A stretch of DNA of 64,000 nt from Candidatus Omnitrophota bacterium (GCA_903901225.1 CAIUQE010000034.1:17391-81390), one strand, 5' to 3'; numbered from the stretch's first letter, positions 14,600 to 22,170 are shown. A program made the numbers and translations. Notes: generated by a model not told the origin, from the letters alone.

Positions 14600-17500
14600 T
14601 TTCCTTCCATTACCGCCGCTCCGGCGCCGTTGAACAAAGGCAGCCCCGCCGCCGGACGTATGTTCAAAATAACCGGCACCAGGCCGTCGATGTGGATATT
14701 GTCCAGGTCCTGCTGGGCTACCGGCAAAGGCACCCCGGCGCCGTCGCGCTTGATCTGCATGTCGAGATTGGAGGCGGCGAAATCGATACCGCCTGGCTGA
14801 ACAACTTTCTCTGCCATGTCAGAAGACTCTGAATTTGATCCAGTTACTTTGCGTTTCGATGTTGTCGCGGCCTGATCAGGAAACCGGCTTATATCCTCTA
14901 TCGGTCGTTCCGATTTAATTAAAAGCCAGTCGTCTCCCCTGAATGATATCCCATCAATCCCATAAATGTAAGCCACAACATCAATCAAATAAGGTGCCAA
15001 ATGCCATAAATTATGATCAAATTCATCGTTATCAAAAACTTTAAACATCTCATTGCGAATTAAAGATACGGAACTATCAGACACGACATCCCCATCAAAT
15101 GAAATCTTGACCCAGGAATCTGATTCCTGTAAAAATTTTAACAATGCCCTGTTCCCATTATTAACAAAAGTCCAAATGGATCTTCCATTAAAATAAGATT
15201 CCGCCTTACCCCACGAAAATCCATCACGACAAATATGCTCGACATCTTCGGGCGATTGAGTAACTCGCTTATGATTAACCTCATGGAACAATTCAAGAAT
15301 TTTTCTTTCTCTACCAGAATAATACGATCCCATCTCCAGGACAAACTTTGCCAGCTTCCTGCTTTGAATTAACGCCTGCCGTAGCGTTCTTTGAGAACCT
15401 TCTTTTAACGGATCATCCAGTGTAGGAAAAACATACGGCATTTCAGCGATAGCTCGACCCAACAATCCCGGCATCAGCTCCATACCAACAGAATTGAACA
15501 ATGTAAAATTGTTATTCTGCGTATCATTCCGCAACCAAACCTCTTCTCCTCCCGGGGCAACAAAGCGCAGATTGAGCTCAATCTGAGCGAAGGCTGATGG
15601 AGGGGTAAATCTTGCTTCCAGAATATAATTACCATCCCCGTCACGCTCATCCGTGGCCGTCAATGCCAACGGCAGATCGCTCTCGGGTGCAGACCAGTCA
15701 TGATAACTGATGCCAACCTCGTCAATATCAAAATGGCTAAAACGGACAAAACCTTTTATGGCCCTAAGATACCTGTCGAGTCGCTCGCGGGACATCTGTT
15801 TGTCATTCAGCGCCATGGCGAACCTGAGGGCAACCTGCCCCTGTTTGTCGACAACGACCTCGGATCCACTCGGCTGCTGGATATGCCCGGCCCAGACTAA
15901 CTTCACCCCAGATAGATCACCCGCCGCATCTGTTACGGCCTGGCTTTGATCCGGAACATTCTTTTTCAATTCAGCCACACGATATTCAAGATATTCCGGC
16001 AACGTCATGGAAACCGCGGGAAAATCAATGTGCTCATATTTTTTGCGCAATGTTAATCCCATTTTCATTTGAGCCACCAGCGACATCGCGTCCCCCATCG
16101 ACGCCGCGCCCCGCCCGAAAGGGTTCGCCTGAAAGAACCACCATTCATATTCGGCAAGCGCCGACAACCGATTATCCATCCTCAACGCATCATCCATGAT
16201 CCGATCCCATAATTGAGTCAAGTGTTCCATAATAGCAGGGATATCCGTATCGTTAGCGTTATAAAGCAGGATCGCGTCTCCCTGGTCATCCATCTTCTGC
16301 ACATACATTACGCCCGTCGACCCGATCTCCTGCTCATGAGAATAACGCCTGAAATCAGATTCAGTGTACGATTTCACAAACCCGGGATGGCTTAACCGCT
16401 GGTGCAGCATTTTATACAGATCGCCATACCTGTTAGAACCCCGGATGCGCGTGGCCGGAATAAGATCATCTGGCAACCCCAGGAACCTTGTTTGAGAATC
16501 GATACGAAGATCCTCGGCCACCCTGCCTTCACTCGGACGCACGCCCGTTTCAGCCGCCGTCAACCGCGCCTGAAAAACTGAATGCAATATCCTTATATGC
16601 CTTTGTTCGGGCCTTTTGAACAAAGAAACGACCATGGCGGCCATGATCTTGCCGAAACGGTAATTAGTATCAAATCCGGAATTTTTAGGGGCACTCATGA
16701 TCTTGCGGACCTTCCTCTCCAGAAGATCATAATATTGGAACTCAGGAACAGCTACAGCCCCAAGCCCTTCGAAACCACGCCATGTTCTTATGCCAACATC
16801 CTGCGCCAGGTCCTTCGTCGCCGCAGCCTGGCCGGACCAGTTCATCCCGTTTGCCGGCTCTAGATCCGGAACATTCTTTTTCAGTTCAGCTACGCGATAT
16901 TCAAGATATTCCGGCAACGTCATGGATAACGCGCGGAAATCAAGGTTCTCGTAACCAACACGTATCGATAACCCCATCTTCAGCTGGGCCACCATCGACA
17001 TCGCGTCTCCCAAAGCCGCCCCGCCCCTCCCGAAAGGATTCGCCTGGAAGAACCACCATTCATATTCAGGGAGCACTGACAAACGACGGTCCATACCCAG
17101 CGTGGCATCCATCATCGTATCCCATAGTTCAGTCAAATGCCGCATAATGACAGGAACATCCGGATCTCTGGCGCTATAGATCCGGATCGACGTGCCAAAA
17201 GAATCAATGATCTGTTGATACATCCCGCCCGTTGATCCAATTTTCTGGTCACGGAAATATCGTACGCCATTGGTAATATAATGATTTTCTGAAAATCCTT
17301 TTTCCAGCAGTCGTTGATGTACCATTTGATACAATTTTTGATACCTTCCGGAATTCCGAACAGAGATGTATGGCGTACCGTCGATCCATTCTAAAGTCAA
17401 ACCTGAAAGTCTTGCCTCTGAAACATTACGAAAAACTCCCACAACTGTATAGTCATCAATACTCAGCTGTTCAGAAGCCACTGACAGGCGTGCCTTAACC

Positions 17501-19701: not shown

Positions 19702-22170
19702 TTAAAGTGTCGCCGGTTCCGCCGGACGTATGTTCACGATAACCGGCACCAGGCCATCGATGTGAATGTTGTCCAGGTCCTGCTGGCCCACCGGCAAAGG
19801 CACCCCGGCGCCGTCGCGCTTGATCTGCATGTCGAGATTGGAGGCGGCGAAGTCGATACCGCCGTTGACACTTGCCTTATCAACAGGCTTGGTTTCAGCA
19901 AAATCAATTTGCCCGGCTTTTTGTTCCGCGTCTTTGACTTTTTCGTCATACTTTATCAATAACCCGTCGCTGGCATTGCTCAAAGCCACCCGCAAAGCGC
20001 TGAGGGGGTTCAAAACTTCCACTACTGTAGCGCTTCTGGAATATTCTTTTATTGCCTCATCCAGCTTCGTTTCCAGAGCGCGAATATCTTCCTGCTTTTT
20101 ATAACGGCTTCCCGTGCCACGCAAAATATCCAGGAACTTAAGCCGAATGCCCTTGCCTGCGCTGATGGCCTTTTCACGCGGCGTCTCCATCGCTCTATCA
20201 CCATCAACCTGAAATGTAAAAGTATCCCCGGCAGAGGTCTTCACCTGAATGATATACGCGGGCTCGTTCTTCGCCTTATAAATGCCTTCAACTACCGCGT
20301 CAACTTTATTAACCTCGCTCCCCACCATGATTTTCTGCCCGACCTTAACCTCGTAACCATCCTTCAACCTGAAGTGAGTAACGAATAGGAACGCCTGCAC
20401 GGCATTGCCAGCACCCTGTTTTTCAAATCCGCTCGCGCCCCAGCGCGCCCTGGTTTTATCTGGCACTGATGCCGACGGCAAAGCCAGGACGTCCCGCGAC
20501 GTCAACAAAGCCATGATCGTGGCCGCCGCCAATACCACATCCTTCGTTGTCATCGCCGCGTCCATAAGCTGGGCAAAATCCCTGGTCCTGGCGCGCCTCC
20601 AGGCATCGCCGGTCACAGGCCCTGTGATCAACAAACTTGTTCCGTTGTCCATCTCGATAAAACACTGATCATCTTTGATCCAGATATTATGAACAACCCC
20701 CTTGACCTCTATGCCTTCGACCATGAAACTTCGCAGATCTTCGACATTGATCACATCGCCATTCTTCAACCTAAGGCTGGTAACCTTCCTGCCCAGGTTC
20801 GCCAATGACGTCGCGGGTGTTTGGTGGAGCAAAACTACCCTTTTTTCAAACTCGACCAGCCATGATCGTGCTTTTTCCATATTGGGATCCGACACTTTTA
20901 ACCAACCGAACGCCACCAATCCTGCCACGATCAGCCCGATTACCAGGTTCAACTTGCCAGCTTGCATCGCGGCATCGACAAGCTGGGAATACGCTTCAGC
21001 CGTGACATCAGAGAACTGGGTAAGGGTGGGCGGCACTGCGGCCGTGGCAAAGTCCGTCTCAACAACATCCGTGTCAGGGGCTTTTACCGCGATCTGGCGT
21101 CCGGCGATCAACGCATCCTGGGCCGGTTCGATGGGCGTGTTCCCCATGGCCGTCCCGCCGGAGAAATACTTCCGCGGGATCACTTCCTGCGTATTCTTGT
21201 CAACTTCTTCCCTGATCATGTTAAAAACGCCCTTCTGGAACGCCTGCACATAGCGATCATAGATCGCGCGGTTCGCCCGCGGGTCCTGCTGGTCAACGCC
21301 CTTCACCTTGCTCCTGTCGGCGTAAAGCTTGCCCAGGATCGACCCTTTCAACGCGCGCTTATACCACGTCGCCAAGAGAACACCGCTGTAGACCTGTCGC
21401 AGCGGAGCAAAGCTCTGGCCCTCGTTCACTTCCTTCTCAATGGCCGGGATGATGACATCCTTCATTACCCGGGAAGAAATATCCGTTACAGCCTCGGCAT
21501 CCGCGGTCTCCGTGCCGGTGGCATTGTTCTTCAGCGCCAGATAATCTTTCTCCGTCATGACCTTCAAATGACTTTCCAGGACATAGACCGTATTGGCTTT
21601 CTCGAACACCACCGCCTTACCGGGCATGATCCAGACCTTGTTGAAAATGTCGGTCGGCACATTGGTCGTGCCAAAACGCCTGTACGCCTCGGCATAGACG
21701 TCATCCCAGAATTTCTTGCCCAGGCGGGTATCGGGCGACGTGAGCGAGGAAGCCAGTTGTTTGAGGAAATAATCCTGCGCCAGAAGGTCGCGGCCCATTT
21801 CGGTAAGGCCGAACGTGTCAGGAATAATGCGGTCTTTTTCATACGGCGAAAGATTCACCCACTGGTCCGCGTCCGGCACCGCAAGGGCGGCAAGAAAATA
21901 TTTGACCAGACGGGTATATTCCGCGCGCTTGCTATCCTCGGCAAGACGGGCATCGCCGCGCTGGATGAGAAAATCGAATTTGAATGGCGCGTCGGGATGG
22001 ATGGCCATACCCCACAGATGCGCCGGCGTGCACGCAGGCGTAAGGTTTACCATGGTTCCTGGCTGGGGCATAAGTCCAACCGCCGAAAGGCTTTGCGCCA
22101 GGCCATGCGGGGGCATAACACAGCTGCAAACAAAGCTGACCAATACAAAAAATGACGTGATCTTTCTCAT
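19702..22170 (-). CDS. giant-family secreted protein, paralog 2 (822 aa), with an internal TM segment
   Basis: Signal peptide ending GLA|QS. The same N-terminal domain at aa 42-340. Hydrophobic helix KLNLVIGLIVAGLVAFGWL at aa ~405-425. Its C-terminal ~48 aa are near-identical to those of paralog 1. Confidence 0.8.
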   Translation of the reverse strand: MRKITSFFVLVSFVCSCVMPPHGLAQSLSAVGLMPQPGTMVNLTPACTPAHLWGMAIHPDAPFKFDFLIQRGDARLAEDSKRAEYTRLVKYFLAALAVPDADQWVNLSPYEKDRIIPDTFGLTEMGRDLLAQDYFLKQLASSLTSPDTRLGKKFWDDVYAEAYRRFGTTNVPTDIFNKVWIMPGKAVVFEKANTVYVLESHLKVMTEKDYLALKNNATGTETADAEAVTDISSRVMKDVIIPAIEKEVNEGQSFAPLRQVYSGVLLATWYKRALKGSILGKLYADRSKVKGVDQQDPRANRAIYDRYVQAFQKGVFNMIREEVDKNTQEVIPRKYFSGGTAMGNTPIEPAQDALIAGRQIAVKAPDTDVVETDFATAAVPPTLTQFSDVTAEAYSQLVDAAMQAGKLNLVIGLIVAGLVAFGWLKVSDPNMEKARSWLVEFEKRVVLLHQTPATSLANLGRKVTSLRLKNGDVINVEDLRSFMVEGIEVKGVVHNIWIKDDQCFIEMDNGTSLLITGPVTGDAWRRARTRDFAQLMDAAMTTKDVVLAAATIMALLTSRDVLALPSASVPDKTRARWGASGFEKQGAGNAVQAFLFVTHFRLKDGYEVKVGQKIMVGSEVNKVDAVVEGIYKAKNEPAYIIQVKTSAGDTFTFQVDGDRAMETPREKAISAGKGIRLKFLDILRGTGSRYKKQEDIRALETKLDEAIKEYSRSATVVEVLNPLSALRVALSNASDGLLIKYDEKVKDAEQKAGQIDFAETKPVDKASVNGGIDFAASNLDMQIKRDGAGVPLPVGQQDLDNIHIDGLVPVIVNIRPAEPATL

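Follow-up and report, generated by a model that had tools for sequence, protein, structure and literature searches.

Gene conversion and concerted evolution between bacterial paralogs have their textbook case in the tufA and tufB genes of Salmonella and E. coli. Related gene copies also recombine in antigenic-variation cassette systems, such as pilE/pilS of Neisseria and vlsE/vls of Borrelia, and modular proteins are found in polymorphic toxin systems (Rhs, CdiA and related proteins) as well as among proteins with conserved C-terminal sorting domains, namely the C-terminal domain (CTD) of the type IX secretion system (T9SS), the autotransporter barrel and PEP-CTERM. Here we compare these systems with a locus in a 64,000-nucleotide (nt) stretch of DNA from a Candidatus Omnitrophota bacterium (GCA_903901225.1, CAIUQE010000034.1:17391-81390), hereafter called the window, which holds four paralogs of a single protein family, termed g1 to g4, all encoded on the minus strand. 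The adjacent and co-oriented tandem paralogs g1 and g2 share a near-identical block of 145 nt near their 3′ ends, and we consider, with a probability of roughly 75%, that this block is a short gene-conversion tract between the two genes, a scar that is passive today.

The 145-nt repeat in g1 and g2

Proteins of the family are Sec-exported and consist of a signal peptide, an N-module of ~340 amino acids (aa), a variable middle with enzyme or binding domains, a 48-aa C-module and a short tail. The repeat falls on the C-module, and the two blocks and the open reading frames (ORFs) that carry them are as follows.

14649..14793, minus strand: C-module block of g1, 48 codons (GGIDF...NIRPA), fitting the C-module profile and 94.5% identical to the g2 block
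19719..19863, minus strand: C-module block of g2, which probably received converted sequence in its 5′ ~74 nt
14596-19686, minus strand: g1, an ORF of 1696 aa with a probable ATG start at 19680
g1 layout, minus strand: signal peptide, N-module (~18661-19680), three AvrB/Fic-like repeats (~15992-18088), a unique region of ~330 aa, C-module and 17-aa tail
19702-22170, minus strand: g2, an ORF of 822 aa
g2 layout, minus strand: signal peptide, N-module (21136-22170), a middle of ~420 aa without Pfam match, C-module and a shortened 5-aa tail

The two blocks are equal at 137 of 145 bases (94.5%), with a longest exact run of 62 nt, and lie as direct repeats 5070 nt apart; a preliminary description of this DNA, made from the sequence alone, had placed them within 1 nt of these coordinates. 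Both are in frame, and their product, GGIDFAASNLDMQIKRDGAGVPLPV[A/G]QQDLDNIHIDGLVPVI[L/V]NIRPA, comprises 48 residues of which two positions differ between the genes. Translation and the C-module profile bear out the earlier proposal that the blocks encode the conserved C-terminal module. The last base of the stop codon lies 52 nt past the block in g1 and 16 nt past it in g2, and the tails that follow the block are unrelated between the two genes (17 aa vs 5 aa). No other repeat above 76% identity and no inverted repeat was found in 14000-26500.

The boreal-lake assembly L001 from ENA is 100% identical to the window over 9702-32170, with the same arrangement and all eight inter-copy differences the same. 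An assembly artefact was ruled out as the source of the repeat, since this independent assembly and the gene calls on at least 18 contigs agree. A conserved RNA element within the block was also considered and rejected: an Rfam search of the block gave no match, and RNA folding of the two blocks (z-scores of +0.5 and +1.4) was no better than that of shuffled sequence.

Synonymous sites and the family baseline

The N-modules of g1 and g2 are saturated at synonymous sites, with a proportion of synonymous differences (pS) of 0.70 and an estimated synonymous divergence (dS) of ~2.0, whereas the C-module block shows a pS of 0.17 and a dS of 0.19. Where the residues are identical, the same codon is used in 39/45 cases within the block and in 105/219 cases within the N-modules (Fisher p = 1e-6), and the best 48-codon window of the N-modules reaches at most 113/144 identical nt. 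The remainder of the gene pair is far older than the block, and gene conversion is the best explanation for a dS of 0.19 in one part of two genes whose N-modules have reached ~2.0.

As a baseline we used 93 C-modules out of 42 genomes. Between genomes these have a nucleotide identity of 0.654 +/- 0.094 and a codon identity at identical residues of 0.45, which is close to the 48% found in the g1/g2 N-modules, thus the synonymous sites of the module are not specially constrained. Of 108 C-module pairs within genomes, g1/g2 ranks as the most similar; its 94.5% exceeds the 99.9th percentile of the between-genome pairs (89.5% nt), and the only pairs above it both include the g1 block of the sister genome L003 (see below). 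Across the family, the identities of N- and C-modules are correlated (Spearman 0.51), and in 3716 family pairs with an N-module identity of 0.60-0.72 the C-module identity averages 0.69 +/- 0.08. It reaches 0.95 or more in just two of these pairs, both being g2 against g1 or a g1 ortholog. Within the family, the g1/g2 block therefore stands out. As a further explanation we considered that C-modules in tandem arrays evolve in concert generally, and rejected it, other within-genome pairs standing at 80-90% with a likeness that is confined to the module.

We propose that a non-reciprocal recombination event would have copied C-module DNA between the neighbours g1 and g2. Because outside the N-module the two genes can be aligned over the C-module only, the tract would be bounded by the edges of homology, with a sharp drop from 94.5% to no similarity. 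As in the tufA/tufB type of gene conversion between paralogs, the patch is far more alike than its surroundings, synonymous sites included, it has sharp edges, and its tree conflicts with the trees of its flanks. Unlike in tufA/tufB, a very short tract is involved, of 145 nt or possibly ~74 nt, which takes in a single small module of otherwise unalignable genes and looks like one sporadic event, with no sustained homogenisation.

History of the block in sister lineages

We compared the window with a syntenic sister genome, the boreal-lake metagenome-assembled genome (MAG) contig CAIOTT010000056.1 (L003), with JAEMOI010009346.1 as outgroup (L002), and through gene calls with two further syntenic relatives, ERZ1426828 and ERZ1426852; a search of JGI metagenomes for close orthologs gave five loci, all of them distant family members. 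The window and L003 are 82-88% identical in DNA over most alignable orthologous segments, and their orthologs have a dS of 0.5-0.7, so that the paralogous block (0.19) lies below the divergence of the orthologs. The N-module and body of g1 are nearest to the L003 and L002 orthologs, whereas the first 120 nt of its block show 6 differences to g2 and 19 to the L002 ortholog. In L002 (3-4734) a g3-like gene directly precedes the g1 ortholog and g2 is absent. The L002 g1 ortholog also has a frame break that divides it into ORFs of 1155 aa and 188 aa.

Within the block, one difference between g1 and g2 of the window falls in the first 74 sites and seven fall in the last 70. The L003 g2 ortholog retains the outgroup state, as seen in the L002 g1 ortholog, at sites 21 and 54, where g2 of the window has the g1 state; the direction is polarised by these two sites only. 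The donor would have been g1 and the recipient g2, with the first ~74 nt of the block chiefly affected, and the event probably dates from about the time when the L003 lineage split off, or later. The block would today be no more than a passive scar, at which further conversion or a deletion of 5.07 kb might potentially take place.

Two further features of the locus became apparent in the comparison with L003.

14050..15430, no strand assigned: tract 95-100% identical to L003, with flanks of 73-89%, spanning most of the pseudouridine synthase gene as well as the 3′ end of g1 with its block
19588..19744, minus strand: segment lost in L003, running from the end of the g2 C-module through its tail and the spacer to the start and signal peptide of g1, with GGTGCCG at both ends

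The first of these, a tract of 1.4 kb, looks like a recent homologous exchange between two lake populations. It also explains why the g1 blocks of the window and L003 are 97% identical, an observation from which a block-specific synonymous constraint had been considered; that candidate was rejected. The second corresponds in L003 (6040-6056) to a 156-nt deletion between two GGTGCCG copies, the lost end of the g2 C-module being its last strand. After the deletion the stop codon TGA of the L003 g2 overlaps a GTG that is a potential start of the L003 g1 without signal peptide, and the gene pair of 1115 aa and 1377-1381 aa, as in L003, was also called in two further assemblies.

Several points weigh against reading the block as a conversion tract that ran from g1 to g2. 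The block has 35 synonymous sites, hence its dating is coarse, and the mosaic within it is weak, with a Fisher p of 0.03 for 1/74 vs 7/70 and a p of 0.08 for a 62-nt run given 8 differences. Between sites 75 and 108, five differences are common to the g2 orthologs of both lineages, so that either the event predates the split or part of the block has stayed unconverted since then. With its truncation and five amino-acid changes, the L003 g2 block seems to be under relaxed constraint, which inflates its divergence and makes this block a weaker reference. Moreover, the g1 blocks of both the window and L003 lie inside the recent inter-lineage tract, which complicates the direction. The search for paralogs covered the window, and a third paralog elsewhere in the genome is a possible donor. 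Finally, the functional role of the C-module is one that we infer, and AlphaFold models this module of g2 with low confidence, except for the last strand (residues 807-816) with a predicted local distance difference test (pLDDT) score of ~88.

Alternative explanations

Import of the block from another lineage, or from a paralog elsewhere in the genome, would leave the likeness of g1 and g2 without any exchange between the two, and we regard it as unlikely. Inter-lineage recombination does reach the site, as the 1.4-kb tract including the g1 block attests, and our comparison was limited to the part of the genome within the window. However, the g2 block lies outside that tract and yet is 94-96% identical to both g1 blocks, and the next-best C-module to the g1 block in L003 stands at only 86%.

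The preliminary description had likened the locus to antigenic- or phase-variation loci and to polymorphic toxin loci, in which middles would be swapped via conserved arms. An active programmed diversity system of this kind is quite unlikely here, although the genes do have conserved ends round a variable middle, and the middles are effector-like, with AvrB/Fic-like and HAD domains in the window and methyltransferase, glycosyltransferase, metallo-beta-lactamase, phosphatase and LysM domains elsewhere in the family. Two differences between sister lineages also speak in its favour. The first concerns the middle of g2, which was replaced or is older, with a breakpoint at the N-module edge. The g2 N-modules of the window and L003 are 85.7% identical in DNA with a pS of 0.36, equal to the genomic background, whereas from residue ~350 onward the middle (window 19864-21114) is saturated (pS 0.77), the switch at the module boundary being sharp; codon identity drops accordingly from 223/297 in the N-module to 33/85 in the middle. 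The last ~100 residues ahead of the C-module are unalignable, and the C-module block is 90% similar again; the L003 version of the middle is 293 aa longer. On this sequence evidence the g2 middle appears to have an older history than the frame of N- and C-module around it. The second concerns the number of AvrB-like units in g1, three in the window and two in the L003 ortholog; g3 varies as well, with 1208 aa in the window vs 2080 aa in the syntenic ERZ1426828 (gene calls).

Compared between sister lineages, the locus is thus a mosaic whose breakpoints fall on module boundaries, and the modules do serve as joints for recombination over evolutionary time, between lineages. The expectation that comparison of strains or species would reveal recombinant middles held to this extent, for g2 between the window and L003. 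Within the population, at least 18 contigs, chosen for carrying an identical g1 or g2, share one arrangement, with the same g3-g2-g1 order (gene calls from consensus assemblies, in which minority variants are invisible).

Within the genome, the proposal that every paralog carries matching 5′ and 3′ homology arms did not hold up. Between the paralogs, the DNA identity of the 5′ modules is 67-73% and their longest exact matches span 15-23 nt; the segment first cited for them (19425-19535 vs 21900-22010) is homologous, with 74/111 positions (67%) identical. The 3′ arm is common to g1 and g2 only, other pairs sharing at most 16 nt. For RecA-dependent recombination, exact runs of up to 23 nt do not exceed the shortest length that pairs efficiently, and 67-73% identity is far too divergent. 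A crossover between the two blocks, given that they are direct repeats, would join the body of g2 to the tail of g1 with loss of the g1 body, and no cassette would be exchanged. The locus has no silent truncated donor cassettes, as g1 to g4 are each a full-length ORF with its own start codon, signal peptide, N-module and C-module. There are no immunity ORFs either, the spacers of 15 nt (g2-g1) and 89 nt (g3-g2, g3 lying upstream of g2) being too small for an ORF, and no recombinase was found among the called neighbours of the locus. Other tandem pairs of the family are not homogenised; in the L086 array (JFJP01012578.1), DNA identity stands at 80% between the paired C-modules and at 75% between the N-modules.

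Set beside the known systems, the locus resembles pilE/pilS and vlsE/vls in having conserved segments round a variable one, related copies close by and non-reciprocal transfer. It differs from them in that there is no expression site with silent partial cassettes, all of g1 to g4 being complete genes, in that the 5′ arms are too diverged and the middles are unrelated domains instead of variants of one epitope region, and in that no population heterogeneity was seen in the consensus-assembly contigs. Phase variation by DNA inversion has no counterpart, the g1-g4 locus having neither inverted repeats (14000-26500) nor a neighbouring recombinase. With polymorphic toxins the family shares its large size, a conserved trafficking part, interchangeable enzymatic domains and effector-like cargo of the AvrB/Fic-like kind, and its hosts, the Omnitrophota, are thought to live by predation or parasitism (10.1101/2023.11.21.568195). 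In contrast to those toxins, the proteins vary in their interior and are best conserved at the extreme C-terminus; they also have classical signal peptides, and their genes are neither followed by an immunity gene nor accompanied by orphan toxin-immunity cassettes. A programmed intragenomic cassette-exchange system is not supported, and we return to conversion between g1 and g2 as the preferred reading.

Purifying selection on a conserved peptide, perhaps together with codon bias, might keep the blocks alike without any recombination. The C-module is indeed among the most conserved parts of the family, with 17 invariant and 10 nearly invariant columns among its 48 positions (alignment A2), and paralogs within one genome usually have C-modules of 80-89% DNA identity next to N-modules of 72-75%. 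The divergence at synonymous sites, which the preliminary description had named as a test, shows that such selection is insufficient: the synonymous sites of the block are alike too (pS 0.17 vs 0.70 in the N-modules), and unrelated C-modules that are 87.5% or more identical in amino acids typically share 40-60% of codons at identical residues, compared with 87% for g1/g2. We judge this explanation to be very unlikely. Highly improbable, too, is that g2 is a recent duplicate of g1 or a g1-like gene in which all but the C-module then diverged fast: g1 and g2 are the closest paralogs in the window (66% aa in the N-module) and g2 is missing from the syntenic L002 locus, but selection on the protein cannot saturate synonymous sites, so the N-modules at a dS of ~2.0 are truly much older than the block, and a g2 with the same N-module is already present in L003 (85.7% nt).

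The protein family and its modules

A homology search with full-length g2 found more than 3,493 proteins, mostly covering the N-module, and every named match was a Candidatus Omnitrophota MAG. The C-module and a short tail end 114 of the 120 best g2 homologs, with the consensus GGID[FLM]..S.L..QIKRDG.GVPLP..QQ.L..I.IDGLVPVIL.I.PA. The C-module profile matched 3,686 cluster representatives among 1.84 billion, and in all 150 of the profile matches listed the module lies at the very C-terminus. Fibronectin-III, WD40 and other Pfam domains complement the enzymes and LysM among the middles of the family. Curated Pfam and NCBIfam models cover neither the N- nor the C-module, no family of these databases is hit at E <= 0.01 by the last 60 residues of g1 to g4, fold searches found nothing useful, and the family is not described in the Omnitrophota papers 10.1101/2023.11.21.568195, 10.64898/2026.06.07.730766 and PMC10066038.

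The modules come in subtypes, and the other two paralogs of the window carry a second one.

22260-25886, minus strand: g3, an ORF of 1208 aa with a HAD hydrolase domain in its middle and a 'type B' C-module at 22263-22448
49272-56699, minus strand: g4, an ORF of 2475 aa with a repetitive middle and a 'type B' C-module at 49299-49478

Only the GGID start and the final strand of this 'type B' module (GGIDL...F.FDP...G..PVI..I.P...GFLG) can be aligned with the common type. N-module identities group the genes in the same way, with 66% aa for g1/g2, 57% for g3/g4 and 45-49% for the remaining pairs (46-49% for g1 and g2 against g3 and g4), so that g1 and g2 are mutually closest in the window and the N- and C-module subtypes co-occur, one pairing in g1/g2 and the other in g3/g4.

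In the AlphaFold model of g2, built with 66 homologs, the N-module is confident (pLDDT 80-93). The long last strand of the C-module, modelled confidently as noted above, needs a partner, and confident sheets occur only in the N-module, so both modules may form one unit. On this model, N- and C-module may be a single unit with the cargo inserted between them and the last strand docking on the N-module sheet; the correlation of N- and C-module identity and the co-occurrence of subtypes fit this idea. The two modules could act as an export, sorting or anchoring frame round swappable cargo. Like proteins with a T9SS CTD, an autotransporter barrel or PEP-CTERM, members of the family have a signal peptide, a variable passenger and a conserved module at the very C-terminus, and like families with C-terminal sorting domains they number thousands in one phylum. 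They are unlike these in that no curated model matches, in that the module is only ~48 aa and always occurs together with the ~340-aa N-module, and in that AlphaFold is confident for the last strand of the C-module only.

The middles of the four genes are diverse. That of g1 matches PF05394 (81 bits) in three stretches, corresponding to three AvrB/Fic-like units in tandem (15992-18088), spaced by 915 and 825 nt and 69-76% identical in DNA; these units have a Fic-like loop (ANPFGRGGASMGD) without the catalytic histidine. The middles of g2 and g4 have no Pfam or NCBIfam match. By eye, the translation of g4 (2475 aa) shows some ten repeats of about 200 aa with the motif DRYARV..ELL.Y....G.PLF, both count and length being approximate.

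Neighbouring genes and other arrays

The neighbourhood of the locus is chromosomal housekeeping. Upstream lie genes for NADH dehydrogenase subunits and a TamB-like gene (PF04357, 26508-27854), which stands directly upstream of the g3-g2-g1 array and keeps this position in the syntenic relatives; it is possible that this neighbour is linked to export or assembly of the family proteins. Downstream are pseudouridine synthase, methyltransferase, EamA and spermine synthase family (PF01564) genes, the first of which directly follows g1 and overlaps it. Another tandem array was seen in L086 (2600-8111), where a C-module is followed by the N-module of the next gene twice, which shows that head-to-tail arrays are common in the family.

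Implications

Gene conversion between tandem paralogs is an ordinary process, here met in an unusual place, and the block reveals no new genetic switch. Its value lies in pointing to a very large, Omnitrophota-restricted family without Pfam or NCBIfam model, in which a fixed frame encloses diverse effector-like middles and recombination breakpoints between lake populations that are closely related fall on the boundaries of this frame. We entertain, with rather little confidence, a wider reading in which the N- and C-module would form a phylum-specific export or display frame into which hundreds of different enzyme and binding domains are plugged, an undescribed effector-delivery family whose cargo homologous recombination would reshuffle at module boundaries, across related lineages and now and then among adjacent paralogs, with the 145-nt block as one trace of this. 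The more interesting by-products of the analysis are this uncurated, phylum-wide modular family and its mosaic evolution at module boundaries. The family is a candidate secreted-effector repertoire of Omnitrophota, which supposedly prey on or parasitise other microbes, and the mosaic pattern suggests how such a repertoire diversifies.

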